64,000 nucleotides of DNA. It comes from Euglena gracilis (lineage: Eukaryota). Where the stretch lies: positions 33,887,737 to 33,951,736 of the forward strand of contig CP154954.1 in assembly GCA_039621445.1 (NCBI GenBank), in the 5' to 3' direction. The number at the start of each line of letters is the position of its first letter. Position 1 is the first letter of the stretch. This document shows positions 4,210 to 37,140 of the stretch, in pieces. The translations under genes were made by a program, and so were the position numbers. A model generated the notes under the pieces. The model saw only the letters and a list, made by a program, of their open reading frames with translations. It ran no database searches and was not told where the DNA came from.

Positions 4210-4242
4210 CGAAAAAAAATAGACACTCAGAATAGACACTCA
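4210..4242 (-). other. Retro-copied Euglena-type spliced-leader exon (23 nt) plus a partial tandem copy
   Basis: Minus strand reads TGAGTGTCTA-TTCTGAGTGTCTATTTTTTTTCG, matching the recalled E. gracilis SL ACTTTCTGAGTGTCTATTTTTTTTCG. Not followed by a GT donor. Confidence 0.85.
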
Positions 4243-4258
4243 AAATGCAACCTGCCGA

Positions 4259-4313
4259 ACGGTGGTGGGGCGAACCGAATCCACCGACCACTGGCACAGC
4301 CTACTGGATTTGA
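4259..4313 (-). repeat. Conserved ~55-nt retroelement 3'-terminal motif (other copies 10455-10509, 10749-10803, 10891-10945, 11751-11805; inverted at 18443-18494)
   Basis: + strand acggtggtggggcgaaccga(a/g)tccaccgacca(c/g)tggcacagcctactggatttga; six near-identical copies read directly. Confidence 0.9.
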
Positions 4314-4784
4314 AGAGTTCAGGGGAGTAAGGCTATGTACAGAGGCAACAGTCTGTGCACGCTGGTGAAGGGAGGGAAGGTAAAAGGGGCGAGCAAAGAG
4401 AACAGTATAAGGCGCGAGGTGAGGCCGCTGTTGATCAGCTTCCGGAGTTCTTCGTCCACGTGAGTCAGAGTGGTTGGGCAGGCAATGGGGAGGTGGCAGG
4501 GCTCGGTGCCGTTTAAGGTCTGGGTGTTGATGACGGGTGGGCCGGTGATTCCGGCTTCAGCTGTCTTTCACGCCCTGCGGCTCCTCGGGGGCGTCGTTGC
4601 AGCTCCGACGTGCTGCATTGGTTCTTGGTTGTTGCAGGGGGCATTCCTTATATATCATGGCATGGTCCCGATTCGCTGCCCCCTTGGCTGTGCGTGGCGG
4701 GCCGTTTCCGGGCCTCCGCTAGTTCAGGAAGCACCGCCGGAGGCGGAGGGGTTGCTTCGGGATAGTGGAGCCCGAAGGGGTAGC

Positions 4785-7700
4785 TCATGTGCTGTATGGG
4801 TGGTGAGTGTCCATGCCACCTCCTTCGTTGAGGTCGTCAGGGCATTGGCCCCACACGAGCTGTTTCGCCAGTTCTCTGGCAAGGGCCATGCTGAGGCCAT
4901 GCCAGCAGTTTGCCTCCGCTGCTCGCCTCTCCCATGCGTCATGTTGTCCCGCAAGCAAGTGAACACAGTTTCCAACAAAGGCAAGCGCTGCCTCCCCCAT
5001 TCCTCCGTAGCAATCGAGGACAAAGGGGATGAACGTCCACCCTCTGCGCTTACAACCGTCTCCATACTTTTTGATTTTGTCTTCCTCCTGGCTCTCATGC
5101 CATTTCCCAAGGTCTTCCAATCCTGGCCGTACGCGGGAAGGTGCAAGGGGGTGGCGAACGGTCACATCGATTGCCGCCGGACCGTTTGCATCATATCGCA
5201 TCACAAATACGTCGCCCGGGCGGGAACCATCAGGGGCACTCTCCTCTCTTCTGGCCGGGAAACCTGCCTTTTGGGCCAGCCCAAGGATGTAGGACTGCAC
5301 CGCCCCGTGTCGCCGAACAATGTTGTTCCGGTGGCAACAAACGAGGTGTGATGGCCTCTTGCGTCCAAGGGGTTGTGGCACCGAGGGCACCCGGGACAGG
5401 CATCTGAAGGCGAAACAACCGGAGCACCCAGGGACCATTGCATCAGGGCCTGGAATTCCCTTGTTGGTATGAGCGTCCTTGTGGCGGCTGACGGCGTAAC
5501 GGAGGCCCAAGCCATAGCATGTGGCTTCATCTGACATGCCATTTTCAGTTTATCGCTACCCGTGAGTGAGTTGTACAGAGCTTGCTGTCGGGCCTTTGCA
5601 CACTGTTGTCCCCAGAATTTCTGTGCCGTCATTTCTTGAGGCAGCATCTCCGGACTTTTTGGGTCCTCAACAAAGGCCTTTGCAATCGGTGGGAGCTCAC
5701 ATAGACCCTTGATGGCCTCCACCTGGGCGGTAAATTCCGAAGGTAGGGGGTTCATCCCACAGATGGGTGGCAAGTCGAGGACGCGGTCGCCGCGAACAAG
5801 AAAGTCAAGTGTGGCGGCCCACCTGGCGATCGGGCGCTCCGTGGTAGGGTCCCGGATGCCCAACCCACCCAACCGGACAGGCAAGGTGGCCTGGCGCCAC
5901 TGGTCCTCTTCCAGCGGCCGCCCGACAATGATGCTGGCGGTATTCCGCAGGGTTTTGCTCAGCAGCGTGCACTGCATGGTTGCAAGGCCAATTGGAGTAG
6001 TCCTCAACAGGTCGTTAACCTTGCACGCGTCCAGACACAGCCTTAGAATGGTGAACTGGATGTGCGCAGAAGGCACCTTCTGCAAGGCTGAACACGCCTT
6101 CATAGCTTCTTCGCACCGCCCAAACCACACACGTTCGGCAAATGTCCCGTCCTCCGGATGGCAAATTGGAACCCCGAGGGACTTGATTCCGGAACCAGGA
6201 ATGTATGGAGTTACGGGGATGCGTTGCAATACACTTGTCCCCTCCAGGAAGAGAAAACGGTCGGGTTGGAAGGCTGGCCCCCAAAGGGTGCATTTGTTGA
6301 TATTCAGGTCAACACCAATGGGTGGTCCCTTTTCAAGGACCAAATGTACAACCTCCTCCAGCTGGCGTGTAGTCCCCATGATGTGGGCATCGTCCAGGTA
6401 CCAGGCCTGCCGTCCGCAAACGCCATGGATTTCCTCCACCAGACTCTGAATTGCCATGGCAAAGGCAGCCGGTCCACAAGGATCGCCTTGCTGAACCCCC
6501 GACTGGCTTCGGAGGGATGTGTCGCTCAAGAAGAGGCTCGAGTGTTCTGCATAACAGGTCTCCAGCCACGTCACCATTTCTGGACATCGTTCTCGTGCTG
6601 CTTCGAGAAGGTTATCCCTCCGGATCCGGTTGAATGCGTTCCTGAAGTCCAATTGCAAGACTCCCCAGTCACGAGAGCCTCCATGATGGAGGCTGGTCAC
6701 GAGGTGTTGGAGGCCCATGCCGATCAGGCCACAGGCGTCAGGACAACCCACCCCAAACTGCCCGGGCATCCCATCTTGGGTAAACTTTCGCACGGCAGGT
6801 TGGCGCATCAGCACCTTGCCCACCAGTCGGCGCAAGCATTCTCCGGAAGCAATGGGCCGAGTCCCTTCTTGTGCGGGATCCTGCCCATTGGGTGTGAGGT
6901 TCCCAGCGTCATCCACTGTCGTGGCCGGTTTGACCTTTCGCAGCGCCGTGAGGCGTGCCGATGTGAGGATTTCAGCCACACCGGCGGGCCATCCCGTGTT
7001 GATGCAGCAGAAGACGAAGGTCGTGAGGCCCTCAAGCAGTGTCTCGGCCTGTCCCCCAGCTTCCCTGCTAAGCATGTCCTTAATGTGGTCCGGCTTTAGG
7101 CCCGATGGCCCTGCTGCCGATTCTTTTCCGAAACTGAACACTGCTTTGCGGACCATGGAAAGCCTGTCCCTCCTCTCGTTCTCGTCTCCAGGTGGCGGAA
7201 AAACAGAACCCGTTTATCCGTGGGGCCCCGGCCAGGTGGTTCCTCAGCCGGGTGAAGATCGTTCAACCGTTGGCGCACAACGGGGTGTTTGTCATCTTGC
7301 ACGCCGTCCGAAGTCAGGACCTGGCATGCCTTGCCAACGGCACCCTTGCTCACCAAACGTTCAAGGCGGCGTACGAATGCTTCTTCTTGCACTTCTTGCT
7401 CACGTCGGGCTTGGCCCCTGGTGCGAACAGGTTGACCCATTTGGGGTAAGCGGGCAGAGTCCTTCCAACTGTCTGCCACCGTTCGTTTTAGATAAGCTTC
7501 CGCTCTGCCGCGGATGACCCTTCCCAACCGGGCCCAATGGCCGCGTCCACCCTTTCCCAAAGGTGCCAACACAGCCTTGGGGAAAGCCCACAGGCCATGT
7601 AATGTTTCCCAGGTGGGCCTCTCGTTGAACGCCCGGAGAAGGCAGGAGTACACGTCACAGACCGCGGGAAGGGCTCCCTTTGGTATGGTGGAAACAGTGC

Positions 7701-8108
7701 CCCTTGGATCCGAGGATATTTCCATCCACGACGGGGAGAGATCCGGGCACGGGGATTGAAGGGCAGTGCCAGTTTTCATGCCGGGTAGATATTGAACCCC
7801 CATTTCAACGTCGTCCACCCCATCCAACGCACTGGGTCCTCTTGTGGGCCCTTGGCTGTTTGTTGCGGGGAGGGTGGCCTCCAGCGGTGGCCGGCTGATG
7901 AGCCGTTGCAGCAGGTCTTGAAGCTCCCTGGCATCTTGTGAGGAAGGGGATACTTGCGGCGGGGGCTGCAACGGAGGCATGGTTGTCGCCATGAGGAAGC
8001 CAATTGTACGCTCTGCGTTTTGTTCAAAGTCAAACAGCATTGGCACCAAGGTGTTGTTCGCTTCAGGGAAGGTTGGTCCGGGCCTGGGTTTGATTCGACA
8101 TCCCCTGA
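4785..8108 (-). pseudogene. Copy B 2A-RT-CCHC-RLE coding region, broken into four ORF pieces by three frameshifts
   Basis: SLLTSGDVESNPGP; SAAGPSGLKPDH; RPIASGECLRRLVGK; LDFRNAFN; GVQQGDPCGP; WYLDD (6389-6400); LPVRLGGLG; CPRC...H...C; RPGD...IDVTV...KIKKY; FIPFVLDCYGG. Frameshifts near 8070, 7200 and 5340. Confidence 0.88.
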
Positions 8109-8691
8109 TGTCAGCAGGCTGTCCCCTCTGCCGGTCCGAGGGTGAGCGGAGGCATGGAGCTTGCGGGGAAGGCCGTTCCGCTTCCCAAAAGGTCCAAGGA
8201 TTTGACAAATGCCCGTTCTGCCGGCTCCACCACGTCCATCCGAGAGGATAATTGAACTCAGCGACCTCAAAAACCCTGTGCCTGGCCGCTTTGCGTGGCT
8301 TGGAGAATCCGCCAATGCCCATTCTCCGCAGGGGTCGAGGAGCTTGAGGCTTCGCTCTCTACCAGGACGGTCTTGACGAATGCCGGCTCTGGCGGCTCCA
8401 CCACGTCGGTGTGAGCGGATATTCGGACTCGGCGACCTCAAAAACCCCCCTGAGGGGACTCTGAGTGGGCTGTTCCGGGTGATTTTTGCGAAGAAATTGT
8501 AATGGCTGGTGCCCGGCGGAAATGGTTCCCGTACTCCCCGGTACGGGAAAATTCCGCATGGCCGTTTCCGGCCTCTCGCCGCATTTCGGCGGGACGAGGA
8601 CCGCTTTTTCGGGTCCGCCACCCTCGAAAACCCCCCTTGTGGGCATCTGAGCGGGCTCCGCCGGGTCGTCATTATGAAGCAACTGTGATGG

Positions 8692-9526
8692 TGTATACGT
8701 TGGTCGTCACCACCCGCCGTTGGACGGCCACGGGGCAGCTCATACTGCTTGCCGTGGCACGCCCTCAGGCGGGGAACTACACCCAAGGTCCGGCCAACCA
8801 GTGTCTCGTCCTTGGGCGCAGTTGCACGCGCCGGTCGATCCCCGCGGTATGCCCTCTGCCCGTACGGGATCGACCAGGACTCACACGGCGGGACCTGGGT
8901 CTCGAACCCACGACCTCCCGCGTGTGAGCCCAGCACCTTACCGAATAAGCTACTCGAGCGATACTCGGCTTGGTACTACGCGCCGGCTACCAACCTCCGT
9001 AGGATCTCCCGTCTGCCGCACACACTCCCCTCCCAAGAGCCTTACTACACTAGCCCACTGCGTCACTATGGCCGTGGCCCCTGCAGCTCGGGTTATGCCT
9101 CACACGGCCCTAGTTGGCTGAGTGCCTCTCACGAGTACTGCGTCACCAGGCTGCCGACCCCTGCAGCTCGGGTTTGCTATTGCCGGCAGTTTACGTGTTG
9201 TCGACTTCCACGGGCTCTGCCGCCTTGGAGCGTCCCCCTTAGCATCGGCTTGAGACTTTGGAACGGTGTAGGAGTTTCAGTCGCCCTAGACTCGGCACGT
9301 CCGCCTCCGCCTTCCGGGCGCCGTGGGGTCAGGCTCTGACTTCCCGGTTCGTGTGGCATTAGACGGGTTCCTCTGCTACCATGTATACGTTGGTCGTCAC
9401 CACCCGCCGTTGGACGGCCACGGGGCAGCTCATACTGCTTGCCGTGGCACGCCCTCAGGCGGGGAACTACACCCAAGGTCCGGCCAACCAGTGTCTCGTC
9501 CTTGGGCGCAGTTGCACGCGCCGGTC
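8692..9526. mobile_element. Small TRIM-like insertion with ~148-bp identical direct terminal repeats and a probable 5-bp target-site duplication (TSD)
   Basis: 8692-8839 is identical to 9382-9529. GATGG at 8687-8691 and 9527-9531. Removing the insert restores ctgtgatggccg..., as in the sister repeat near 9886. Confidence 0.7.
8890..8959 (-). pseudogene. tRNA-derived sequence (Val-CAC-like pseudo-tRNA or SINE head)
   Basis: GCTCGAGTAGCTTATTCGGTAAGGTGCTGGGCTCACACGCGGGAGGTCGTGGGTTCGAGACCCA: A-box-like TAGCTTATTCGG, CTCACAC anticodon loop, B-box GGTTCGAGACC. Acceptor and anticodon stems pair poorly. Confidence 0.55.
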
Positions 9527-10454
9527 GATGGCCGCTGCCGGAGGGCAGTGGTTCCCGTGTGCCACCAGGACGCTCTTGACGAATGCGGGCTCTGGCGGCT
9601 CCACCACGTCGATTTGAGCAGATATTCGGACTCGGCGACCTCAAAAACCCCCCTGAGGGGCCTCTCAGTGGGGTCTGCCGGGTCATTTTGGCGAAGAACT
9701 TGTAATGGCTGGCGCCGTGCGGCTGTGGTTCATGTGCTCCACGGGACGAGAAAATTCGGCATGGCCGTTTCTGGCCTCCCGCCGCATTTCGGCGGGACGA
9801 GGACCGCTTTTTCGGGTCCGCCGCCCTCGAAAACCCCCCTTGTGGACATCTGAGCGGGCTCCACCGGGTCTTCTGAATGAAGCAACTGTGATGGCCGATA
9901 CCGGAGGGCAGTAGTTCCCGTGTACAACGGACTCCAACAAAGTACTCAACAAGGGTCGAAACCTCCAAAGAGCATTTTGAGTGCAACAGCAATTTTTGCA
10001 GTCTTTTCGCAAGTGGATATGGCGGACTTCTGATCATAATGGCGGGCCCTTCGCCCAACACCCTTCCGACCGGGGGGGAATGACATGGCACTAATCCGGG
10101 AATCGTCGTGGGAGTCTTTGGGGCAAAAAGTCCACATGTTATGTTTTGTTCGCTTCTCATGCCTTCGGTGATGATGATGATGTCGATGGCTGGTCCGGGG
10201 CTGACCTCCCGGGCTGCTGCTCCAGGGCTGATCTCCTGGGCTCGTTGGGGGTTGGGGGGCTCACCCCTTTGGTTGGCATGCTGGGGGTTGCAAGGCTTGT
10301 TCTCTTGCCCCCGGTGCCATCGAACGCTGCGGGGCTGTGTCTCCCGCTGCTCTGGAGCTGTGGGGCTTGGCATCCCACAGGAATCAAGCTGGTTTGTCAA
10401 GTAGAGAACTGGTCACGATCAACAGTTGCAAAGCACGGTCCGAGATGGATGTAT

Positions 10455-10724
10455 ACGGTGGTGGGGCGAACCGAGTCCACCGACCAGTGGCACAGCCTAC
10501 TGGATTTGAGTGTTCGGGGGAGAGGGAAGCTATGTACAGATGGGGAAACCCCCATGGATAGTCAGAGGTTAATCAGGAGACAGTTGCAAAGGAGTGGAAG
10601 TAGTCGATGACTTCAGAAAGCAATATCTTGAAACTTCAGATACCCAAGGTAAATAATAATGCTTGACCCCGACCCCGGGGCTTTCAAGACAAGTTATGCA
10701 GAAGACGAAAAAAATAGACACTCA
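10455..10724 (-). mobile_element. Short non-autonomous derivative: SL + ~125 nt + 3' end of copy-D type
   Basis: SL remnant at 10706-10724 (TGAGTGTCTATTTTTTTCG). 10455-10580 is nearly identical to 10891-11016. Confidence 0.7.
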
Positions 10725-10748
10725 AAATCCAGTGCAAGCAACAACAAA

Positions 10749-10890
10749 ACGGTGGTGGGGCGAACCGAATCCACCGACCAGTGGCACAGCCTACTGGATT
10801 TGAAGAGTTCAGGGGAGTAAGGCTATGTACAGAGGCAACGGTGTGTGTTCTAGATAGCCTAGTAGCGTCCCCTGTCGTTGAATTAAATAT
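10749..10890 (-). mobile_element. Severely 5'-truncated 3' end of copy-B type
   Basis: 10749-10839 matches 4259-4349 (gaagagttcaggggagtaaggctatgtacagaggcaac). Confidence 0.7.
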
Positions 10891-11739
10891 ACGGTGGTGG
10901 GGCGAACCGAGTCCACCGACCAGTGGCACAGCCTACTGGATTTGAGTGTTCGGGAGAGGGAAGCTATGTACAGATGGGGAAACCCCCATGGATAGTCAGA
11001 GGTTAATCAGGAGACACCGGGGCTTTAGTAGCCCGTGGGAAATGGGGTGGATGGGAGACCATGTCGATGATCGAAGAGAGAGTCGAGGATCAGGTGGCGT
11101 CGTTGGGGTGCGCGCGGGGTGCAGTCTTTGGCAGCGGGGCGGGGAGGAGCGGCCATGGTGCATGCTCGGGTGCGGCCTTTGCTGCCGCAGCCCTGATGCT
11201 CTTGACGAGCTGTCGTGCATCGTGACCCATCTGGTGATTGATCGACGCGGCTGAGTGGTTTTAGCGTAGGAGGTGCTTTGGGCGCAGCATTTGCACAATC
11301 TGCCGGAAGAGGGCAAGCGCCAGAAGCTGGTAGCTTTCAGCCTGCCGCGTAGAACGGACATCTCCATGGTCCCACGAGGTTGTGCGTTTGATTATTCTGG
11401 TCAGCAGCTTCGCGCTTTCTGGTCCAAGGCCGCCCCACGTGCCCATTGCCAAGGTGGCGAAAGACCATCCTCCGTTTCGGCAGGGAGTGTCATACTTGGT
11501 GTGCTTGGCAGCCTCCTTCCTTTTCAGGAAGGTCCTCCAGCGCTCCCGCGTTGCCAGCCTTTCGGCGGCCTGCCAGCCATGAGCGACTGTGATGTCGACT
11601 GCCGTGGGCTTACCGTCCTGCCAGGTAGCCAAAAGCAAGTCAGCCGGCCTGAGCGAGCTGTCGGGTTGGTTAGGCACCAGACCTCGCGTTGCACGCTTTG
11701 ACCGTTCGTTGACAAGATGTTGAAGAGGGCGTCTTGAAC
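10891..11739 (-). mobile_element. CRE copy D, 3' part (RLE domain + 3' UTR)
   Basis: VQDALFNILS...VQREV, then after a frameshift LRPADLLLATWQDGKPTAVDITV...KEAAKHTKY...GTWGGLG, stop at 11261; close paralog of the C-terminus of copy C. Confidence 0.85.
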
Positions 11740-12067
11740 CATAGTGGAATACGGTGGTGGGGCGAACCGAATCCACCGACCAGTGGCGCAGCCTACTGGG
11801 TTTGAAGGTCCGGAGGAGGTTAAAAGTATATACAGGTGGTGCAGGGCAGGGCAGAAGGAAAACGGGCAAGGCCCATCTTCAATATAAGGCGCAGAGGGAC
11901 GGCTGGAGTGGTTGACGGCTGGGGTGGCTGACGGTAGGGGTGAGGCGGCCTGCTTGGCGCGGGCGGGAGGGCGGGCGGATGGTTGTGGTGTTTTGGTGTG
12001 CGTGTGTGCGTGTGTGGGTGTGGGTGTGTGTGCGTGTGTGGGTGTGGGTGTGTGGTTGTGTTGTGTG

Positions 12068-12098
<31 letters not shown>

Positions 12099-12114
12099 TT
12101 ATTTTCTTCCGTGG

Positions 12115-15100
12115 TTAACGGAGGACGTGCTTGGGTTGTAAGAGGTGGAACACTTCTCGGAGCAAGGCGATGGCCACATTTTGGTAGATTTCCGCTTGCT
12201 TGGTTTCGCGCTCAGCGCCCTGTTGCCAGGACGATGCGCGTTTGGCCACTCTGCTCAGTGTCTTGGCCGTTTCCGGTCCCATGCCACCCCATGTCCCGAG
12301 GGCGAAAGGTGTGAAGCACCACCCTGCTTGCTGACATGGCACGTTGTATTTCTGCTTTTTGGCGTCCTCCCTCCTCTTCAGGAAGGATCTCCAGCGTTCG
12401 CGGGTCGCTGTGTGTTCTGCCGCTTGCCAGCCGTGGCAGACGGTAACGTCCAGCGCCGTCGGCTTCCCCTCGGACCAGCAGTCCAGCAGGAGGTCCGCCG
12501 GGCGTAGGTGACTGTCTCGGGCCGTTGGCAGGGAAACTTCCTTCTGCACCCGGTGACCGCTGTTGGACAAGGTTTGAAACAGAGCGTCCTGAACAGCGTT
12601 GTGCCGGGCTGAGAAGTTGTTCCTGCGGCAGCAAAGCAGGTGGTCGCCTTCCTGGTCCAGAGGCTGGCCGCACCCTGTGCACGGCTGGCTGACGTCCTCC
12701 AGCACCGGCAGCCCTAACCACCACTTCAGTCCCAAGGTGTACTCCTCGCTAGAGAAGGTGGTGTGGGAGTTGTTGGAAGGGGTGGCCGCCATCCACCCGT
12801 GTCCGAACCCCGTGGCTTGTTCAAGGAGGCGGTTCTGGTCGCGGGGCCGGGCCTGGTCCACAAGGCCATCCATCGCCTTTTTGCCCAGCTCGTGGTTCCA
12901 CCACTTTTGCCTCCGGGGTTCTTGGTCCGCGGAGGCGAGTCGTCGTGGGTTGTGGAGGAAGGTGGTGACCGTGGCATGGTTGGCTCCTAGCCTGCCCCGG
13001 AGGTCGTCCAGGACGGGCGCGACCAGGGGTAGCTGCAGGCCGGATGCGTAGTCGGGCACACCCACGCGCCTGGCCCCGTCTGAGTAGAAGTCTGCAAGGC
13101 AGGAGATCCTGGCTGCGGGCTGAGTGCAGGACGGGACGCGGAGGCCGCAGCCCCCGCTGGATAGGGGCAGCGACGCTTGTGTCCGCTGTTGTGGGTTCAG
13201 TGCCGTGCCCAGTATGTCCTCGAAGGCGTTCATGATGACCTCCGAGCAGCCTGTAACCTGATCTTGGCTGCCATACGAGTCGGACGCGCGTAGGAGGTGG
13301 TTCACTTTGCAGCCGTCAAGACAGCTCCGCAGAAGGTGATGTGCCACCTGGGCGTCGGTGAGGGACGTTATGGTAGATGAGGCCTTCTCGATCTTAGCGG
13401 CAGCATCCGCCCACGCTTTCTTGGTGGTGTCGGAGGACGCGGGGTGGTCTACTGGGATACCGAGCACGGTATGCCTTCCCCTGGTGACCAAGGGACCACT
13501 TGCAATCTGTCGCAACTGGGTGCACTCCGCGCTCCCGGGCCCCACAAGACGCACTTCTGCAGGTTGAGGCCAAGGCCAATGCGGTGGGACTCTTGCAGCA
13601 GGAAACGGAGGCAGTGTTCAATCCTGTCGGGGGTTCCGACCAGGAGGCCGTCGTCCAGGTACCAGCTGTTCCATAGCAGCTGGCCGTCCCTGGTTATCTG
13701 GTCCAGCAGCGGCTGCAGCGCCAGGGCGAACCCGATGGGGCCCAGAGGGCAGCCCTGGTGTGTGCCCCTCTGGGAAAGGATGGTGCGGCCCCCGCAGAAG
13801 AGGGGGACGGGCCCGCTGTATGCAAACCTCAGGAAATTGAACAGACTGGGTGTACGGGTCTCGGCCTCTGTAAGGTCGCCCCTCGGTCAACTGTGTTGAA
13901 AGCATTGGAGTAGTCCACCTGGAGGGAAACCCAGGGTGAGGTGTCCCCCAGCTGAAGCACGAGGTGCTGCATGCCCAGGGCAACAGCCTCGGCGGCGTTC
14001 CGTACCCCCACCCCGACCTGGGTGGGGGCGAGCGTTGCAACCTCCGACCGGGCATGTGGTGTCTGGAGCAGCGTTTTCCCTACCAGGCGGCGGATGGTCT
14101 CCCCAACCGCCACTGGCCGCACCCCGTTGTCCTTCTTGCGGAGTGGGGTCAGATTCGCGCAGCACCAGGCCGCGGCGTGGTGCGGTGGTAGCTGGCCGTC
14201 AATCCAGAACTGGGTCAGCCGCGCAAGGGCTGTGATCAGCTTGGCTCCCCGGCCCGGCCTACGAAGGCAGTCTTGGAGGTGGCTGGGCCGCAGGCCCGAC
14301 GGGCCTGCGGCGGAACCCCGTGGGAAACGGCGGATGGCCTCCTTCAGTCTGTCCTCCCATTCCGGGATGTGGTTCTCAGGGAAGGGCTTAACCTGTCGCG
14401 GGAGGCGGTTGGTGTCCACCGGTCTGCCGCTTGGGTGCAACTTCTCCAGGGCAGCCCAGACATCCGGATCATCCGGTTGGTGCGCGCCCTCAGAGAGCAG
14501 TAGCTGGACTGCCTTCGCGGACGCCCCTTCTGCGGTGAGGGTGCGCACCCGTCTCGTTATGGCCTCACTGAGGGCGGTCGGCTGCGTTCTTGAGCGTTTT
14601 TCCGCCCTGGTTTCCACGACGGAGTGTCGAGCCTGTGCGTCCTTTAGTGCCTCTGTCAGAAGGGTGCCGTAGTCCCCCTCGCGGAACAGTTTGGTACGCC
14701 GCAGCAGGATGGACTCCAGCTCCGCTGCCGGCGGCGGTTTGGTAGTCGACACCGGTCGGAGGACGAGTTTCGGGAAGGATAGGACGCTGAATAGAGCAGC
14801 GTCCGAGGGTGCGTGCGTGTATGCGTTGATGGCATCTGCCAAAGTGTCAAAGACAGGTTGCTGGCAGGCCGAGGGCAGGTGAATAAGGGTGGAGATTCTT
14901 TGTTGGAGGACGTGGGTGATGTCGCATGGGGGAGTGCCCACGACAAGGTTGTGTGTGGGCCGTCCCCGGAGGTTGGACTCCTGCCCCGCGCTGTCGATAA
15001 CTACCGCGGCGTCAAGTTCCGGGTGGGCCAGGTCCAGAAAGAGGTGGTCGTGGTTCCGGGCATTCGCAGCAGCCGGTGCGCCATGAGGTGGCCCGGAGGC

Positions 15101-18100
15101 CGGGCGCTTGGCTGGCCCAGGGTTCTCCTCCACGTCTCCACAGGTGAGGAGGCTACCCCGTCCGCGGGTTGCCCCCCGTATGCAAGGACTTCCCCGCGGC
15201 GGACAACGATGGCCGTTTTTTGGCAGTGAGTCGGCTACCGCTGCCGGATCCATGGGGGCCCGTGGCTCGTGGAGGAGGGAGTGGGGGGTGGGGGTCAGCC
15301 GAAAAGCCGGGCGTAAGAGCGGTGGGCTAGGGGCGGCAAACTGAAGAGGGAGCAGCGTGGGGCAGTCCCAAGGCCATTGCCACAGTCCGCAGCGAGGGCA
15401 CCAGCAGGGGGTCTGACCGCGGATGTCCCACAAGGCGTTCCGGTGGAATAGGAATGTCCGGCCTGCATAGTCCCCTAGGTGGAAGACTTCGCCGCCATGA
15501 GTGGAGCGGCGTTCTATGATAAGGCGTTGTTGGCCAAGGGAGAGGAGCGGCGCAAGGGGGTAAGGGGAGTGCGCGCGGCGCGAGAGCTGCCGTCCGTGGT
15601 CAGCGCCCCGGTGGGGACCCGGTGGGGGCCGGGCGCCGCATGGGCTGCCGCTGCCGGTGTGGCATATCCGTAGGGCTGTGGTCGACCACGTGGGGGCCGG
15701 CAGCAGCGCTGTCCCCCGGGCCCGGTAGATGGGGCATCGCGGTAAGGTCACGGAATGCAAGGAGAGGCGCCGCAGGCCGGCCAGCGCGGTGGACCACTCC
15801 GGTGCGAGGAGGATGATGTTGCCCCCATATCGAAGGACGTGTTCCAAAACACGGGGGAGCAGGGAGAAGGGTGGGTTGCACCACAGCGGGTTTGGCAAGT
15901 TCCAATTCTGGAGGAAAGCATCCTCCCTTGATGACCAGAAGGCGTCCAGTTGGGTGTTATTTTGGTCGGCGAAAGCGTCGATGGTGGGCGGGTCATGGGG
16001 GGACAGAGCCCGCACCACCGCCTGGAACCACTCGGTGTCCAGCATGAAGTCTTCGCGTGGTGCGAGGGGGGGGAGAACGGAGGAAGCCCGGCCGGAGGTC
16101 GTGGGGCCGGGGTTGCTCTCCACATCTCCCGCAGTGAGGATGTCTGCGCCCCTGCCGCTCCGAGCCCGCGGGGGAACCCCCAGGGGGCGGCAGCCGGCGG
16201 CCTGCCGGCGAAGTGTGGAGGTGAGGACCCGCCCATGCGGGGCTCCCTGTGAGTCACTGAGGGAAGCAGCTACGTGGGGTGGGGGTGAGGCCCCGGGGGG
16301 TGCCGGAGTCGCGCTGCTGGGCCCAAGAGCCGGCGCTCCCCGTCTGGGACGCGTGGAGTCATCGTCGTCGGCATCGTCATCCTCCGGGTCGCTATCGACG
16401 TCAGAGAGAGACGGTGGTTGGCAGATCTGCATGTGGGCGACTATGGGCGCTGGGTACGGGGTCGCAGTCGACCATCCGCACATTTGGCAGTGTACCAGCC
16501 ACCACTCGCCGTTTGGGAGGGACTCCAAGTGCTGTAGCCTCCAGCGCCACGAGTCTTCTCTTATGGAGGGGAGAGAGAAAATGTTGCCCATGGGCCTACC
16601 CGCCTGGCAGTGATGGGACTGCATGCCTTGGAGGGAGGACAGGTTGACGTGCTGAGAGCACAAGAGGCATCTCGCATATTCGGACCCTGCCGACGCGAGG
16701 TCTTCTGCCGTCCCCGACGACGAGGGGCCGGCGGTTACCGGGGTGAGCAGACGTAGCCACCGCCAGTGTTGGCCAGTCCAGTAGATCTCCTCCCAGACGT
16801 CGTCGGGCGCCAGGGGGGGGGATGGGCTCGCCGGTCCCCCCGGGCGAGGCCCCGGGTTCTCCTCGATATCGCCGCAGCAGAGGATATCCCTGTGGCAGAG
16901 CTGCCTCGAGAGGCCGGGGCGACTGTGACCGTCGGCGTGATGCCACCCCATTGTATGCCCGTGGTGCCGGCCCCCCCGAGGGGCGGTAGCCGGCCGCCCC
17001 CCCCCCCTCTTGGGGCTGCACGCAGGGGGGATACAGGAGCAGCTGGACGTCGTCGTCCGCTAGGTCAGACCAGGTGCGACCGGGGGGGTGGGGGGGCAGG
17101 GGGGAAGCGGTGATATGAATTCCCTCCAGCCAGTGGTCCACGAGGACTTTTTTGTATTTTTTCCTGGACCCGGTCCATTCCCCCCAGATGGAGGCGTCCG
17201 TCGAAGACAGCACAGACCAATCGTCTGCTGCTGAAATCGAGTTTGTCGGCAGGTTGGCCGGGGCACTGGAACTGGCTGCTAAGGTGTGCTCCTTTTTTTG
17301 TGCAGCCCTTTTTTGGTCCACCAGGTCGGTGACCATTTTCTTTTCCTCAGTGGACCTTGTCCTGAGTTTTTCCAAAATCCTCTGGATTTGGGGTGTTGTG
17401 GTGCATTTTTTGGGGGGGGGCCTTGGCCCAGTCCTGGGTGTGACTTCAAAAACTTCTGCCCCCCCCCCCTCTTCCACTCCCCCCCCCCTTCGATTTGGCA
17501 GGGCACAAATGAAGGAGATGGTGGGAGGAAGGGTCCAGAGGGTCCAGCTGCCATTAAGAGCGGGGCATCGGTAGCAATGGACATGTGGCTGCCATTTGAA
17601 TTTAAATTTAAATTTGGAACATTTCCAAGCAGCATCCACATGATTTGTAGCAGCAGCTGTCGCAGCACGTCGGTGGGGAGCTGCAGCCCTTGGTTGGCTG
17701 TTGCACAGGCTGTCATGGTGGGGGTGTTCCCCACAGGGCCCCCCAGGAGGCTGCCCATCTGGGCCCCCATTTGGCTGCCCATTTGCCCCATTTGGGGCTG
17801 CAGCTGTTGCTGCTGTTGCTGCTGTGGCTGCTGTTGTTGCTGGGCAGTCCTTCCAGGCTTCCCCTGGGGATTTAAAGGTGTGTGGTGTGTGTGGTGTGTG
17901 TGTGTGTGTTGTAGCCAGGGGGGAGGTAAGGGCTGCTCAGGCTGGTGTCGGAGGTGGCGGGGGATGTAGCGGCTCTGGTGTTTTTTTTTGAGGAACTCCT
18001 CGTAGGCTTCGTCTTCTTGTCGCCTCCTTTTTCCCGGTCGTCCTTCCTCCACCTTGTCGGCCAGCTCTTCCACTTTGCTTGCTAATACCACCATATTCTG

Positions 18101-18214
18101 AGCCACCAGGCTCACTTGCTCCAGCACCGAATTCAATTTTTTGTTGAGGATGACGTTGTCCAGCGGCACTTCCAGCACGGCTGGCGGGTCTTCTGGGGCC
18201 GCGGCCCCCGACAT
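12115..18214 (-). CDS. Copy C polyprotein (gag-like / 2A / Zn fingers / 2A / methyltransferase / 2A / RT-CCHC-RLE), frameshifted in this assembly
   Basis: ORFs 17279..18214, 16596..17639, 13829..16951 and 12115..13554 overlap or abut. RT motifs SGLRPSHL, RPVAVGETIRRLVGK, VDYSNAFN, GTHQGCPLGP, WYLDDG (13650-13661); CTGC...DHLLCC; RPAD...LDVTV...KKQKY. Confidence 0.8.
15660..16060 (-). CDS. Dam-like/DIRS1-like amino (N6A/N4C) methyltransferase domain within the copy C ORF
   Basis: DFMLDTEWF...IDAFADQNN...FWS..EDAFLQNW...LWCNPPFSLLPRVL...LLAPEW...PAPTW; NPPF at 15866-15877. Confidence 0.8.
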
Positions 18215-18232
18215 GGCGGTTTATGCGGAAAT

Positions 18233-18258
18233 CGAAAAAAAATGGACACTCAGAAAGT
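18233..18258 (-). other. Full 26-nt spliced-leader copy (1 mismatch) at the 5' end of copy C
   Basis: ACTTTCTGAGTGTCCATTTTTTTTCG followed by ATTTCCGCATAAACCGCC-ATG. Confidence 0.9.
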
Positions 18259-18265
18259 TGTGACA

Positions 18266-18494
18266 CTTGAACGGCGTTGTGACGGTTCGCGAAGTTGTTA
18301 CGGATGTAGCAAAGATCGTGGTCTCCATGAACATCCACCGGGGCCTGACAGCCAGCACAGATAGTCGGTGTGACCGCTAGTGGCAAACCCAGCCACCATT
18401 TCAGTCCCAGCCGGTAGTCCGCCGGGTCGATGACGGTGTGTATCAAAATCCAGTAGGCTGTGCCACTGGTCGGTGGATTCGGTTCGCCCCACCA
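18266..18494 (-). mobile_element. CRE copy D, upstream part (zinc knuckle), capped by an inverted 3' motif
   Basis: YRLGLKWWLGLP...CAGC...GDHDLC...NNFANRHNAVQ joins VQDALF at 11739; inverted motif at 18443-18494. Confidence 0.8.
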
Positions 18495-19002
18495 AACCCG
18501 CGCCCAAGTGAAATTGGGCACCCCGTTTCCCCCTCAGGAGTGTTTTAAACACTTCTTTCAACCAGGCTGTAACGGCGCGCTGCACGCTTGTGCATGGCTG
18601 ACCACGCTGGACAAAAACCTGAAATTTTGGCATCACAATGGTTTTTTGGCATATCACTGAATTTGTCAGAATTTTTTTTGTTGGCCAGGTGCACGAATGA
18701 TAGGAGGATCCCACCGAGCCAAAGTCCTTGGGGTGAGAACATTGTGCGGTGAATGTTCGCCGATCCAATCAACCGCATCAACCCCCTTTATTGAATTTGA
18801 GCCCCCCCCCTCCAAATTCATTTCTCTTGGTTGGGCTGAAAATGCATGCAGACACATTGGACCTCAAAAACTGTCAAAAAAGTCCCATTTTTAAAAAAAA
18901 ATTGAAACTGTGCTGGGTGGAGGCCGAGGACACATCCATCATGCAAATCATTGGATAAGTGAATAGGGATATGGATACGGTTAGGGTGAGGGTTAGGGGG
19001 TT

Positions 19003-34600: not shown

Positions 34601-37140
34601 CCCAAAATAACAAAATCCCTTGTGTTTCCCAGCCGTTTTGGGAGGCAAATCCCTTTTGTTGCTCAACTGTCCCAGGGCCCCAAAATAACAAAATCCCTTG
34701 TGTTACCCACAGTGTGTCACCCCAAGTCGACCTAACCCTATCCCTTTCATTAACAAAATAAACCCCCTTTATCCGCCAACCCCTTCTCGGGTGCAAGTCG
34801 ACCTAACCCTATCCCTTTCATTAACAAAATAAACCCCCTTTATCCGCCAACCCCTTTTCGGGTGCAAGTCGACCTAACCCTATCCCTTTCATTAACAAAA
34901 TAAACCCCTTTTATCTGCCAACCCCTTTTATCTGCCAACCCCTTCTCGGGTGCAAGTCGACCTAAATCCCTTGTGTTGCCCACCCGTTTTGGGGGGCAAA
35001 TCCCTTTTGTTGCCCAACTGTTCGAGGGCCCCAAAATAACAAAATCCCTTGTGTTACCCACCCGTTTTGGGGGGCAAATCCCTTCTGTTGCCCAACTGAT
35101 CTGGGGGGCAAATCCCTTTTGTTGCCCAACTGTTCCAGGGCCCCAAAATAACAAAATCCCTTGTGTTACCCACCCGTTTTGGGGGGCAAATCCCTTGTGT
35201 AACCCACCTGATTTAACCCACCTGATGTATGTAACGCAACTGATTTGGGGGGCAAATCCCTTTTGCCCAGCTTAGGGTTGGGTTGCAGGGGGGGGGGAGG
35301 GGGTGGGGGGGGCCGACCCTAAGTCGACCCTGGGGTTGTAGGGGGGGGGGGAGGGGGGGTAGATCTGGCCTGGGGGGGGGGGGGGTTGTGGGCCGACCCT
35401 AGGGTCGGCCCACGGTCGCCAAAGGTCGCCAAAGGTCGCCCAAGGAGCCGTCCGGGAGACCCCCCTAGTGGGCCGACCCTAGGGTCGCCGACCCCAGGGT
35501 CGACTTAGGGTCGTGGGCCGACCCCAGGGTCGGCCCACCCCACGACCTCCTCGAACGGTTGGGCAACAAAAGGGATTTGCCCCCCAGATCAGTTGGGAAA
35601 CAAAAGGGATTTGCCTCCCAAAACGGGTGGGCAACACAAGGGATTTTTTTTATTTTGGGGCCCTCGAACAGTTGGGCAACAAAAGGAATTTGCCCCCCAA
35701 AACGGCTGGGTTACACAAGGGATTTGCCTCCCAAAACGGGTGGGTAACACAAGGGATTTTGTTATTTTGGGGCCCTCGAACAGTTGGGCCAGAAAAGGGA
35801 TTTGCCCCCCAAAACGGGTGTGCAACACAAGGGATTTTGTTATTTTGGGGCCCTCGAACAGTTAGGCAACAAAAGGGATTTGCCCCCCAGATCAGTTGGG
35901 AAACAAAAGGGATTTGCCCCCCAAAACGGGTGGGTAACACAAGGGATTTTGTTATTTTGGGGCCCTCGAACAGTTGGGCAACAAAAGGGATTTGCCCCCC
36001 AAAACGGCTGGGTAACACAAGGGATTTTTTTTATTTTGGGGCCCTGGGACAGTTGGGCAACAAAAGGGATTTGCCTCCCCAAAACGGCTGGGTAACACAA
36101 GGGATTTTTTTTATTTTGGGGCCCTCGAACAGTTGGGCAACAAAAGGGATTTGCCCCCCAGATCAGTTGGGAAACAAAAGGGATTTGCCCCCCAAAACGG
36201 GTGGGTAACACAAGGGATTTTGTTATTTTGCGGCCCTCGAACAGTTGGGCAACAAAAAGGATTTGCCCCCCAAAACGGGTGGGTAACACAAGGGATTTGC
36301 CTCCCAAAACGGGTGGTAACACAAGGGATTTTTGTTATTCTGGGGCCCTCGAACAGTTGGCCAACAAAAGGGATTTGTCCCCCAAAACGGGTGGGCAACA
36401 CAAGGAATTTTGTTATTTTGGGGCCCTCCAACAGTTGGGCAACAAAAGGGATTTGCCCCCCAAATCAGCTGGGTTACAGAAAGGATTTGTCCCCTGAAAA
36501 CGGTCCGAAAATTTCATTTTTTTTCTTTGGAGGGGGGGGGAGGTCGTGGGGTGGGCCGACCCTAAGTCGACCCAGGGGGGGGGGGGGGAGTTCGGGGGGT
36601 GGGCCGACCCTAAGTCGACCCTAGGGTTGTAGGGGGGGGGGAGGTCGTGGGGTGGGCCGACCCTAAGTCGACCCTAGGGTCGGCCCACAAAGGGTTTCTA
36701 GGGTCGCCACCCACTCCACAGCCTCGGGGGGGGTCGACCATAGCGACCTTTGGCGACCTTTGGCGACCGTGGGCCGACCCTAGGGTCGGCCCACAACCCC
36801 CCCCCCCCAGGCCAGATCCTGGACCGGGGGCGGGGGAGGTCGTGGGGTGGGCCGACCCTAAGTCGACCCTAGGGTTGTAGGGGGGGGGGAGGTCGTGGGG
36901 TGGGCCGACCCTGGGGTCGGCCCACGACCCTAAGTCGACCCTGGGGTCGGCGACCCTAGGGTCGGCCCACTAGGGGGGTCTCCCGGACGGCTCCTTGGGC
37001 GACCTTTGGCGACCTTTGGCGACCGTGGGCCAACCCTAGGGTCGGCCCACAACCCCCCCCCCCCCAGGCCAGATCTACCCCCCAGTACGTTAGTATTAGT
37101 ACTAACGTACTAGTACGTTAGTACTAGTCGGCCGACTACC
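31608..37140. repeat. Palindromic satellite block (composite ~80-110-bp units in two opposed arrays with GC-rich palindromic caps)
   Basis: gggggcaaatcccttttgttgcccaactgttcgagggccccaaaataacaaaatcccttgtgttacccacccgtttt repeated ~31950-35270; reverse-complement array ~35550-36480; gggccgaccctagggtcggccc caps. Confidence 0.9.

Follow-up and report, generated by a model that had tools for sequence, protein, structure and literature searches.

Retrotransposon-borne methyltransferases are a recent theme; the cytosine enzymes come from elements of dinoflagellates and charophytes, the adenine enzymes from DIRS and LTR elements. The main text of a preprint on the latter (10.64898/2026.05.21.726589) describes a Pfam Dam-like enzyme with an NPP motif and a compact core in the retrotransposon polyproteins of DAM-DIRS and DAM-LTR elements, lists Euglena gracilis among the hosts and proposes that the enzyme places 6mA on the element. 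Its classes are DIRS elements, with a tyrosine recombinase, and Ty3-like LTR elements, and Euglena DAM elements with LINE/L1-like reverse transcriptases (RTs) are mentioned only as possible chimeras. In that text the terms ‘2A-like’ and ‘endonuclease’ are absent, ‘non-LTR’ occurs once in a general list and there is no LINE class; its supplements may list such elements. The DIRS1 MT domain was placed in the PCIF1 clade by Iyer et al. (2016), whose account judges the DIRS1 copies inactive (PMC4738411). The published views conflict, one being of a prokaryote-derived, active DAM and the other of a PCIF1-derived, inactive domain.

Three groups of non-LTR elements are also relevant. SymbioLINE-Dnmt of Symbiodinium (de Mendoza et al. 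2018, PMC5890265) is a LINE with a methyltransferase upstream of the RT, target-site duplications (TSDs) and no poly(A) tail. Activity of 2A peptides has been described in LINEs (PMC3708506, PMC13405545), where L1Tc/Ingi and other APE-type clades, and elements whose ORF2p carries N-terminal DUB or PPR cargo, have 2A sequences toward the N terminus of the RT polyprotein, which in some cases bound accessory domains. The texts of PMC13405545, PMC12846837 and PMC12338488 contain no occurrence of ‘methyltransferase’. R2 and CRE/SLACS/CZAR elements have a single ORF with N-terminal Cys/His motifs, RT, CCHC and a PD-(D/E)XK nuclease with RH and K..KY motifs; we found no mention of a 2A peptide or methyltransferase in the parts of that literature covered here. 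A search of the literature, subscription journals and supplements excepted, found nothing joining 2A, methyltransferase and non-LTR element.

The element analysed here, copy C, lies in a 64,000-nucleotide stretch of Euglena gracilis contig CP154954.1 (assembly GCA_039621445.1, positions 33,887,737 to 33,951,736), referred to below as the window, which also holds two related elements, copies A and B. Copy C encodes a methyltransferase of the DAM-DIRS/DAM-LTR family, but it belongs to the non-LTR elements, having a CCHC motif, a C-terminal restriction-like endonuclease (RLE), a TSD and no integrase. Its catalytic core is homologous to the DIRS1 MT/PCIF1 clade. In DIRS elements, MT lies within Pol after RT and RNase H, without a 2A; in copy C it is upstream of the RT, 2A-delimited and accompanied by an extra Cys module, and it keeps the catalytic motif, unlike the DIRS1 copies judged inactive. 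SymbioLINE-Dnmt is APE-type (Exo_endo_phos) and has a C5-cytosine DNMT in a separate ORF1, whereas copy C has a putative N6-adenine methyltransferase in the same ORF as the RT, with predicted 2A release, and an RLE. The 2A-bearing LINEs named above are APE-type and Dualen/RandI; copy C shares their N-terminal placement of 2A sites but has an RLE only, three serial 2As and methyltransferase cargo. By motifs, its remaining layout is that of R2 and CRE/SLACS/CZAR. Whether the architecture was already catalogued, a question raised in a preliminary description of the locus, can be answered in part: the preprint anticipates it for DIRS and LTR elements and treats the Euglena elements with LINE-like RTs as possible artefacts. 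What is new is that an adenine methyltransferase lineage so far described in DIRS and LTR elements extends to an RLE-type LINE.

Results

Boundaries and insertion site of copy C

Copy C is a full-length non-LTR retrotransposon, RLE-bearing and without an APE domain. The features that define the insert are as follows.

11740-18265, minus strand: copy C, whole; 6,526 bp, inserted in an older, 5′-truncated relative and delimited by an empty-site joint
18266-18272, minus strand: TSD GTTCAAG, upstream copy; 7 bp, with the downstream copy at 11733-11739; read directly and matching the joint overlap
18233-18258, minus strand: spliced-leader sequence at the 5′ end of the insert; 25 of 26 positions identical to the Euglena gracilis spliced leader
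11740-12114, minus strand: 3′ UTR; an A run and CA repeats right behind the stop, then a conserved family tail

The empty site was recovered as a joint from 11732 to 18266, which skips 6533 nucleotides with 7 letters shared, in two DNA contigs (run X2, depth 178) and one RNA read. Both flanks of copy C are RLE-coding fragments, 57% (18267-18440) and 56% (11261-11725) identical to copy C’s own RLE. The window is rich in nested repeats, and copy C is itself nested in another element. Compared with the published Euglena gracilis leader (PMC6242988), whose first base is A, the match at the 5′ end has one mismatch, and a DNA pattern search gave no match in 100 shuffles. The leader lies inside the TSD-bounded insert and the empty site lacks it. 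Copy C’s RNA began with a spliced leader.

The CRE clade, to which the preliminary description had assigned the element, inserts site-specifically and takes spliced-leader RNA genes as its target. Copy C differs, with the RLE-coding region of another element as its site and a TSD that lies outside the leader. Spliced leader exons are described as a non-LTR target (PMC4640811), and CRE/SLACS/CZAR elements share with copy C a link to the leader, but in copy C the leader is part of the insert and not the target.

At the other end, the family tail of about 90 nt (11749-11839) closes the 3′ UTR without a terminal poly(A). This tail (family D17) occurs six times in the window and not at all in shuffles; its predicted folding was no better than that of shuffles (z -0.02), and no Rfam family was found within 10400-18600. 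Summed contig depth in run X2, a figure that does not measure copy number, drops from the 3′ toward the 5′ part of copy C, which fits 5′ truncation.

A methyltransferase between 2A sites

The coding features, in the order in which they would be translated, are listed below.

16871-18214, minus strand: N-terminal segment, from the ATG at 18212-18214 to 2A site 1; coiled-coil-like and Q-rich at its start; frame broken twice at or near G runs
16847-16870, minus strand: 2A site 1, context CCGDIEENPGP
16133-16846, minus strand: Cys/His-rich segment between 2A sites 1 and 2; one C..C...H...C motif at 16421-16489
16103-16132, minus strand: 2A site 2, AGDVESNPGP
15656-16048, minus strand: predicted N6-adenine methyltransferase core, residues 20-150 of the inter-2A protein, from Pfam, predicted fold and conservation
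15968-15982, 15866-15877 and 15794-15811, minus strand: methyltransferase motifs IDAFA, NPPF and LLAPEW
15362-15517, minus strand: small beta-rich Cys module in the same predicted released protein; CPRC at 15389-15400, WPWDC at 15362-15376
15113-15142, minus strand: 2A site 3, CGDVEENPGP
13449-15112, minus strand: reverse transcriptase with an N-terminal extension; GPSGLRP at 14285-14305, YLDD at 13650-13661; frame broken near 13829-13886 and 13449-13617
12115-12681, minus strand: CCHC knuckle and RLE; CCHC at 12628-12681, RH at 12592-12606, P(A)D at 12487-12504, D at 12439-12453, K..KY at 12346-12360, stop at 12115-12117

A stop-free frame of 1076 codons (13829-17059, minus strand) takes in the three 2A motifs, the methyltransferase and the start of the RT. 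The translation of 15113-16132 on the minus strand runs for 340 residues without a stop, from AGDVESNPGP to CGDVEENPGP, and bears out the preliminary description, which had read these two 2A sequences at 16103-16132 and 15113-15142 and, between them in one frame, IDAFA, DAFLQNW, WCNPPF, LLAPEW and a small CPRC module; all are present, CPRC within CWCPRC. The same description had one frame running through to the RT and RLE. This holds for the start of the RT only, which goes on past a frameshift and is followed by the RLE. The 2A site at 16847-16870 was missing from its list.

With the strict form D[VI]ExNPGP of the 2A consensus (10.64898/2026.09.24.754024), a six-frame search of the whole window found five motifs, all on the minus strand, and none in each of 30 base shuffles. 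Three belong to copy C (16847-16870, 16103-16126 and 15113-15136), one to copy A (826-849) and one to copy B (8079-8102). All three copy C sites are in frame, and the ORF goes on from the proline. Sites 1 and 2 have (D)IL..GD ahead of the motif, and the 17 residues before the final proline of site 3, GRGSLLTCGDVEENPG, equal the 2A tag of PDB constructs 7p2p and 8ut1 in a phmmer search of the PDB. Such 2A tags were the only PDB matches of the inter-2A protein by phmmer.

Translation of the polyprotein of about 2,000 codons would be split by three 2A (StopGo) sites into four products: an N-terminal protein; a Cys/His-rich protein; a protein of 330 amino acids predicted to combine a compact N6-adenine methyltransferase core with a small Cys-containing beta module; and the RT fused to CCHC and RLE. 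We consider this anatomy of copy C very probably correct, and it is quite likely that the 2A sites free the methyltransferase as a separate protein from the same message as the RT.

No Pfam family scored below E 0.01 in the N-terminal and Cys/His segments or in the upstream frames of copies A and B, and the single Pfam row for the Cys/His segment is weak (zf-C2H2_12, E 0.02). The Cys module has invariant W47, D48, C57, C60, W67 and C69 in 10 sequences and was modelled with a pLDDT of 76; searched alone, it gave no convincing fold match (VIA best Z 3.2; Foldseek best E 1.0) and no Pfam family.

RT and RLE

The RT of copy C matches Pfam RVT_1 (E 3.3e-8) and is collinear with the intact protein P0154 over three window frames. 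Downstream, between 12346 and 12681, the motifs CCHC, RH, P(A)D, D and KKQKY follow in the order listed for the R2Bm RLE (PMC4838377); the RLE is known from these motifs, and its frame had no PDB match at E<=1. No Exo_endo_phos match was found at E<=1 in the copy C frames scanned, nor at E<=0.001 in the related proteins P0007, P0016 and P0032, and these scans added no further Pfam domain. Pfam gave no match to Phage_integrase, tyrosine recombinase or RNase H in the scanned copy C frames. From the motif order, the TSD and the absence of LTRs and of an APE, copy C is an RLE-type (R2/CRE-group) non-LTR retrotransposon. Assignment to DIRS1-like retrotransposons was rejected: the scanned frames hold no tyrosine recombinase or RNase H, MT is upstream of the RT, and the MT domain alone is shared. 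P0007 had no significant phmmer match in the PDB, the ESM Atlas matches of the RT-RLE part were RVT_1 clusters without names only, uninformative on the clade, and the named relatives are one hypothetical protein each from Diplonema and Effrenium.

Fold and conservation of the methyltransferase

The AlphaFold model of the inter-2A protein has pLDDT values of 95-98 across residues 21-150 (10-residue blocks). The preliminary description had suggested a Foldseek search with this peptide, and the matches are to SAM methyltransferases. The closest solved relative of the model is PCIF1 (Foldseek E 7e-5; VIA Z 9.8, rmsd 2.9 over 123 residues), an RNA cap methyltransferase by its PDB titles, and further VIA matches are T4 Dam (Z 8.2, rmsd 2.7 over 105 residues), EcoDam (Z 8.0) and the rRNA adenine methyltransferases KsgA, Erm and DIMT1 (Z ~8). 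All top structural matches are N6-adenine or related SAM methyltransferases. A profile of 88 homologues matched PCIF1 alone in the PDB (E 0.0032), with FAS..N, NPPF and PEW as common motifs. The Pfam Dam family (PF05869) match is marginal for the copy C protein (28.9-29 bits against a cut-off of 28.1, E 1e-6, only 42 residues) and solid for the family, with matches in 73 of the 88 homologues (best E 2.1e-18).

Conservation in the 88 sequences reaches at least 90% at residues D43, F45, W68, N77, P78, P79 and P102, and [ND]PP[FYW] is kept in 132 of the 150 best representatives. IDAFA, which contributes D43 and F45, sits at what we take to be the expected place of SAM-binding motif I, without its glycines. 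The modelled fold confirms the inter-2A piece as a predicted SAM-dependent methyltransferase of Class I (Rossmann-like) fold with NPPF intact. The earlier reading of NPPF as an intact catalytic motif IV agrees with this conservation, and the likeness it had drawn to the DIRS1 MT domain is borne out by locus L002, which has the order RT-RNaseH-MT and an MT 34% identical to that of copy C. By sequence, the enzyme belongs to the retrotransposon ‘DAM’ lineage (PF05869-like) known from DIRS and LTR elements.

Recurrence of the architecture

Searches recovered 642 representative methyltransferase homologues at E<=1e-3, and a 2A-like motif was present in 47 of the best 150. In public assemblies, the order 2A, methyltransferase, 2A, RT, RLE runs without interruption through four full-length proteins, P0007, P0016, P0032 and P0154, with methyltransferase identities of 39-53%. 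P0154 keeps the full set of three 2As in the order of copy C, with a C..C...H...C motif between the first two. A metagenome scan with P0154 found no relative, and one with alignment A3 found three short loci. Metagenome locus L001 repeats the order Cys/His segment, 2A, methyltransferase; its similar Cys/His segment is preceded by a 2A-like DIEPNPGL, in which the final proline is replaced, and followed by a canonical 2A. The same layout in independent proteins at this level of identity indicates a family feature and not a chimera. The preliminary description had proposed looking for the linkage elsewhere, and the four shared layouts speak against a one-off fragment.

Within the window, the 88-homologue profile finds exactly one methyltransferase (E 2.9e-50; next best 0.2), in line with the earlier remark that copies A and B lack it. 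The suggestion that followed, of exchangeable cargo, fares less evenly: the domain is carried by 4 of the 12 informative RT relatives, but the carriers share a collinear cassette at 39-53% identity, which favours long retention. Pairwise identities of the MT and C-terminal parts among five carriers correlate with r = 0.34 over 10 non-independent pairs, a value that fits co-inheritance or transfer alike.

Integrity and expression of this copy

Copy C as assembled lacks coding competence. It has two frameshifts in the RT and further ones at upstream G runs, and an extra A at 13470 is present in all X2 depth. Among the 40 within-species variants listed (there are 135 further ones), 26 lie in the long frame and were classified. 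Seven fall in the cassette, three synonymous and four non-synonymous, too few to speak of constraint; the counts are 7 and 3 in the N-terminal part of the RT and 1 and 8 in the Cys/His segment, again too few. Two RNA-seq runs, each sampled at ~5%, gave 45 and 47 reads on the stretch, nearly all partial and at tails and repeats, and zero depth over 15152-16139, which is no evidence of silence.

Discussion

For those E. gracilis DAM elements whose RTs are LINE-like, the preprint raises the possibility of nested insertions or assembly artefacts (10.64898/2026.05.21.726589), and with nested repeats throughout the window and copy C inside another element, the methyltransferase-LINE linkage could be a DIRS or LTR fragment nested in a LINE, or an assembly chimera. 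We regard this as exceedingly improbable and already largely refuted, given a single continuous frame across 2A, methyltransferase, 2A and RT, the collinear order in P0007, P0016, P0032, P0154, P0002, P0003 and L001 from two sources (ENA and JGI) at methyltransferase identities of 39-53%, and Pfam scans of copy C frames, which revealed no integrase, RNase H or tyrosine recombinase. Site 2 of the 2A series is moreover spanned by a 1,324-nt X2 contig (15996-17315), and an X1 contig joins the methyltransferase to the RT region, but with a 538-bp deletion. A second possibility is that the NPGP motifs cause no skipping in this host, so that the polyprotein stays fused or is cut by a protease. Many retrotransposon 2A-like peptides are described as lowering protein abundance instead of skipping (PMC13405545). 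Five strict motifs in three related elements, against none in shuffles, make this very unlikely in our view, as do the recognisable segments that the motifs flank in all cases seen, the near identity of site 3 to a widely used 2A tag and the use of 2A-based expression tools in Trypanosoma cruzi, also a euglenozoan (PMC10830525).

The preliminary description had suggested that the freed enzyme could mark new cDNA, shield it from the element’s own endonuclease or host defence, or modify host chromatin, ideas that all stay hypothetical. Our best overall explanation, which we hold to be about evenly poised between right and wrong, is an RLE-type LINE with a 2A-released, active methyltransferase that places 6mA on the element’s new DNA. 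The released enzyme would be catalytically active; its most likely job would be 6mA methylation of cDNA, an RNA:DNA hybrid or a fresh insertion, and a new copy so marked would carry the host’s permissive-chromatin mark. Taken by itself, DNA 6mA as the substrate is a tentative assignment. The preprint gives evidence in both directions, reporting that 6mA-methylated insertions are more frequent in DAM-LTRs than in the remaining LTRs of three species including E. gracilis, and no 6mA rise when representative eukaryotic DAMs were expressed in dam-deficient E. coli (10.64898/2026.05.21.726589). That the closest solved relative is PCIF1, an RNA cap methyltransferase, points to RNA over DNA. The released enzyme may instead be a PCIF1-like N6-adenosine methyltransferase acting on the element’s RNA, for example on the cap-adjacent A of the spliced-leader 5′ end, and the transcript might thereby be stabilised or its translation or recognition altered. 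We consider this possible if on the unlikely side. PCIF1 is both the best structural match and the sole PDB match of the family profile, KsgA, Erm and DIMT1 are among the next structural matches, and the element RNA starts with a spliced leader whose first base is A; the DIRS1 MT was placed in the PCIF1 clade (PMC4738411), and the preprint authors, with no DNA 6mA in E. coli, raise non-dsDNA substrates (10.64898/2026.05.21.726589). The PCIF1 match is, however, limited to the catalytic core of about 130 amino acids, T4 Dam and EcoDam lie less than 2 Z units from it, Pfam Dam matches in the family reach E 2.1e-18, and DAM-LTR insertions are richer in DNA 6mA (10.64898/2026.05.21.726589). A bolder form, in which the LINE brings its own cap-adjacent adenosine methyltransferase for spliced-leader-capped RNA and the entire retrotransposon ‘DAM’ lineage consists of RNA and not DNA enzymes, seems decidedly improbable; if true, a LINE would stabilise or disguise its template RNA with its own mRNA cap-modifying enzyme. 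Catalytic death of the domain is rather unlikely. The domain would then bind nucleic acid or protein, the role proposed for DIRS1, and might hold template RNA or mimic PCIF1; the judgement on DIRS1 MT domains (PMC4738411), the negative E. coli assay and a domain shorter than prokaryotic DAMs, without CD-1 and TR-1 (10.64898/2026.05.21.726589), agree with it, but across 88 sequences N77-P78-P79 and D43/F45 show conservation of 90% or more, an NPP[FYW]-type motif is found in 132 of the best 150 representatives, and the preprint describes a conserved pocket (10.64898/2026.05.21.726589).

Whichever substrate applies, copy C would represent a different deployment of a retrotransposon methyltransferase, as a separate protein that 2A is predicted to release from the RT’s own message. 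For questions of activity and of DNA, hybrid or RNA substrate, the inter-2A protein provides a natural construct, complete in itself. TSD-bounded copies that start with the spliced leader suggest how, in a trans-splicing host, a LINE without an obvious promoter may obtain a capped 5′ end. The Euglena ‘DAM elements with LINE-like RTs’ include at least some genuine LINEs, as opposed to chimeras, which settles a loose end in the text of the preprint (10.64898/2026.05.21.726589).

A 2A-delimited methyltransferase in element C

The preliminary description placed methyltransferase (MTase) motifs and a small CPRC module between two 2A peptides in one open frame. Translation of 15113-16132 (minus strand) gave precisely this arrangement: 340 stop-free residues that begin with AGDVESNPGP, end with CGDVEENPGP and contain IDAFA, DAFLQNW, WCNPPF, LLAPEW and CWCPRC, all within a 1076-codon open frame (13829..17059, minus strand). 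Scanning all six frames of the 64-kb window for the strict motif D[VI]ExNPGP identified five sites, all on the minus strand, compared with none in 30 window shuffles. Three fall in element C, a non-LTR retrotransposon, and one in each of its relatives, copies A and B.

2A motifs in the window
16847-16870, minus strand: 2A-1 of element C, absent from the preliminary description
16103-16126, minus strand: 2A-2 of element C, from the strict-motif scan
15113-15136, minus strand: 2A-3 of element C, from the strict-motif scan
826-849, minus strand: 2A of copy A, upstream of the actual or expected reverse transcriptase (RT) part
8079-8102, minus strand: 2A of copy B, upstream of the actual or expected RT part

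The 17 residues preceding the last proline of 2A-3 are those of the 2A tag on PDB expression constructs, which we take to be Thosea asigna virus 2A. The polyprotein runs from an N-terminal segment through 2A-1, a Cys/His-rich part (238 residues), 2A-2, the MTase protein (330 residues) and 2A-3 to the RT part. The latter comprises an extension, RT (GPSGLRP, YLDD), a C-terminal CCHC knuckle and then RH, P(A)D, D and K..KY, which PMC4838377 gives as the defining motifs of the restriction-like endonuclease (RLE) of R2Bm. RVT_1 and Dam were the only Pfam families matched in the scanned element frames, with no match to APE, RNase H, integrase or tyrosine recombinase. The long upstream frames of copies A and B (124-2697 and 7096-10412) contain neither a Pfam family nor an MTase. 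In sequencing run X1, a 1,428 nt contig (depth 12) has 538 bases (14716-15253) replaced by 8 other letters, a deletion variant of element C in which 2A-3 is lost and the end of the MTase protein is joined to the RT extension.

The RT/RLE of element C is spread over three window frames that are collinear with an uninterrupted public-assembly homologue, P0154; the RT of this copy is therefore frameshifted twice. At 13470, the extra A is present in all of the depth from run X2. The RT breaks may be real or may be homopolymer assembly errors. The N-terminal segment changes frame twice, at or near G runs; the overlaps contain runs of 10-12 G (about 17450-17480 and 16990-17000), where other copies show 1-3 base indels. 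These changes may reflect homopolymer errors of long reads and not mutations.

Structure and conservation of the methyltransferase

The inter-2A protein gave a 42-residue match to Pfam Dam PF05869 that scored 29 bits, just over the cut-off of 28.1. A HMMER search of 1.84 billion representatives returned 642 relatives at E<=1e-3; 73 of 88 aligned sequences match Pfam Dam, with E as low as 2.1e-18. An AlphaFold model, with 87 relatives in the alignment, had pLDDT values of 95-98 for residues 21-150 (10-residue blocks).

Structural matches of the MTase model
PCIF1/CAPAM, cap-specific adenosine methyltransferase: Foldseek E 7e-5; VIA Z 9.8
KsgA, Erm and DIMT1, rRNA adenine methyltransferases: Z about 8
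T4 Dam: Z 8.2; rmsd 2.7 over 105 residues
E. coli Dam: Z 8.0

The suggested SAM-dependent MTase fold is thus upheld by matches of the model to PCIF1, T4 Dam and E. coli Dam, and the possibility that no such fold is present falls away. When the PDB was searched with the 88-sequence profile, PCIF1 was the sole match (E 0.0032), with FAS..N, NPPF and PEW in common. Residues D43, F45, W68, N77, P78, P79 and P102 are conserved in at least 90% of the 88 sequences, and an NPP[FYW]-type motif is kept in 132 of the best 150 representatives (of 642). All 10 sequences compared share W47, D48, C57, C60, W67 and C69 of the CPRC module. It is modelled as a beta-rich unit (pLDDT 76) with no convincing structural match and no Pfam family; judged by its alignment, the module is real and conserved.

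Recurrence of the layout and variation of the cargo

Linkage of MTase, RT and RLE extends beyond a single copy, with four public-assembly proteins sharing the order.

Uninterrupted proteins containing MTase, 2A, RT and RLE
P0007: 1,294 aa
P0016: 1,273 aa
P0032: 1,805 aa
P0154: 2,111 aa

The contigs encoding them are 6.5-7.5 kb, about the element length. P0154 is 42% identical to the window frame over 779 residues and has all three 2As ordered as in the window, the first two flanking a C..C...H...C motif. In two further proteins (P0002, P0003), the MTase is followed by the Cys module, a 2A and the beginning of the RT protein; metagenome locus L001 has a Cys/His segment, 2A and MTase, as in element C. 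Among the best 150 MTase representatives, 47 have a 2A-like motif. On these sequence comparisons, the 2A-MTase-2A-RT-RLE layout is a family feature and not a one-off. A second metagenome locus, L002, encodes RT (YVDD), an RNase H-like domain and a 34% identical MT in DIRS/LTR-like order, which ties the cassette to the domain of DIRS type. In P0134 (1,448 aa), an LTR-type element, Dam precedes RT, RNase H and integrase; in P0111 (923 aa) it precedes RVT_1. Both contexts agree with the DAM-LTR class of bioRxiv 10.64898/2026.05.21.726589.

We surveyed 49 RT-RLE relatives for cargo, setting aside 37 with fewer than 650 residues before YxDD, whose N-termini are uninformative. The remaining 12 included four with MTase and eight with 2A. 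From just past the Cys module onward, P0152 and P0007 are 86% identical, and the parts upstream are unrelated. A profile search of the window found MTase in element C only, confirming its absence from copies A and B. Together, these three comparisons indicate that cargo differs between lineages. The earlier view of the MTase as exchangeable cargo stands to that extent, but the carriers' MTases are 39-53% identical, a divergence similar to that of the RLE region, which suggests long residence in the elements that have it. A correlation test among carriers gave r = 0.34, a value that favours neither co-inheritance nor transfer.

Boundaries, leader and tail of element C

Searching the window with element frames (tblastn) revealed that element C interrupts an older relative: RLE-coding fragments adjoin its ends at 18267-18440 and 11261-11725 (57% and 56% identity to its own RLE, respectively). 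Public contigs aligned to 11200-18600 yielded a joint, 11732->18266, at which 6,533 bases are missing and 7 letters are shared; it is present in two X2 DNA contigs (depth 178) and one RNA read. This is the empty site of element C; with the two GTTCAAG copies, it fixes the insert as 18265..11740 (6,526 bp).

Features of element C and its tail family
18266-18272 and 11733-11739: 7-letter repeat GTTCAAG, by direct reading
18233-18258, minus strand: 26-base spliced-leader stretch, after the first 7 bases of the insert
18212-18214, minus strand: ATG, 18 bases past the leader
12115-12117, minus strand: stop, then an A run and CA repeats
4257-4347, 10453-10543, 10747-10837, 10889-10979 and 11749-11839, minus strand: tail copies (~90 nt)
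18450-18493, plus strand: tail copy

The leader stretch has one mismatch to the E. gracilis spliced leader as quoted in PMC6242988, with no matches in 100 shuffles. As it lies inside an insert bounded by a target-site duplication, the retrotransposed RNA carried the leader, through trans-splicing or leader-gene transcription. Our literature search found no paper describing a spliced-leader start for such elements. A second family element also starts with the leader (4210-4235, minus strand; three mismatches, no matches in 100 shuffles).

Element C ends in a ~90-nt tail with six copies in the window; this tail folds no better than shuffled sequences and has no terminal poly(A). Every family element ends in this conserved tail, three consecutive copies consist of the tail alone, and the elements from 18440 to position 1 are all on the minus strand, head to tail. 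Three more X2 contig junctions run from tail through 11-28 letters to leader. The tail rows, head-to-tail order and junctions suggest that elements insert beside pre-existing tails. Elsewhere in the window, large satellite-like arrays (31900-36500 and 45100-46200) have 34/78/112-nt periodicity in both orientations; their inverted arms reach 334 nt, and an inverted repeat of 347 nt lies at 45257-46026.

Abundance and expression

Fourteen public runs each contained half or more of the words sampled from the cassette, and 20 runs from 17 studies contained at least part of it; a leaf-litter metatranscriptome (X20) contained about a tenth. Summed contig depth in X2, which is not a copy number, was 275-764 for RT/RLE, 148-199 for the cassette and 64-111 for the 5′ part, a fall that fits 5′ truncation. 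Two RNA-seq runs sampled at ~5% yielded 45 and 47 reads, nearly all at tails or repeats, and none over 15152-16139. Euglena TE expression is described as low or undetectable in bioRxiv 10.64898/2026.05.21.726589.

Discussion

The data above establish the anatomy and boundaries of element C, the MTase fold, the conservation of its motifs and the recurrence of the layout. We propose that 2A skipping would free four proteins from one message, that MTase and RT would come from the same message, and that the released MTase would methylate adenine on the element's nucleic acid. Our leading, if tentative, candidate for the substrate is DNA, as cDNA, RNA:DNA hybrid or new insertion. The sole in vivo data on the domain family, from bioRxiv 10.64898/2026.05.21.726589, show higher 6mA on insertions of DAM-LTRs than of other LTRs in three species, one of them E. 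gracilis. RNA ranks second, as a less likely substrate. In its favour, PCIF1 is the closest solved relative by sequence as well as by structure, and the same preprint reports that heterologously expressed DAMs failed to methylate DNA in E. coli. A dead binding module, as proposed for DIRS1 by Iyer et al. (PMC4738411), is the least probable of the three, and the conservation of NPPF in this family argues against it. The MTase might conceivably shield the element from its own RLE, as raised in the preliminary description, but nothing supports this idea.

PMC13405545 reports 2A in Dualen/RandI and in ORF2p-like proteins whose N-terminal cargo is DUB or PPR, with no mention there of a methyltransferase, and Odon et al. 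(PMC3708506) report 2A in APE-type elements, with RLE clades as background only. The LINE described in PMC5890265 encodes its cytosine MTase in a separate ORF1 and has a nuclease of the APE type, whereas element C has an adenine MTase within the RT polyprotein and an RLE. In the openly available main texts searched, we found no paper on a 2A-delimited adenine MTase in an RLE-type LINE. Assignment of element C to the CRE clade is a guess, and this copy is not inserted in a spliced-leader gene, a hallmark of that clade.

The cassette of element C is a real, coherent feature. Retrotransposons with Dam-like enzymes are already known, Euglena included: bioRxiv 10.64898/2026.05.21.726589 (May 2026) lists 10,030 eukaryotic DAM proteins and assigns 53.9% to retrotransposons, in classes given as DIRS or LTR, and its accessible text makes no mention of 2A, endonuclease or PCIF1. 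In contrast to those classes, the DAM-carrying retrotransposon described here is an RLE-type LINE with putative 2A release of its adenine MTase.
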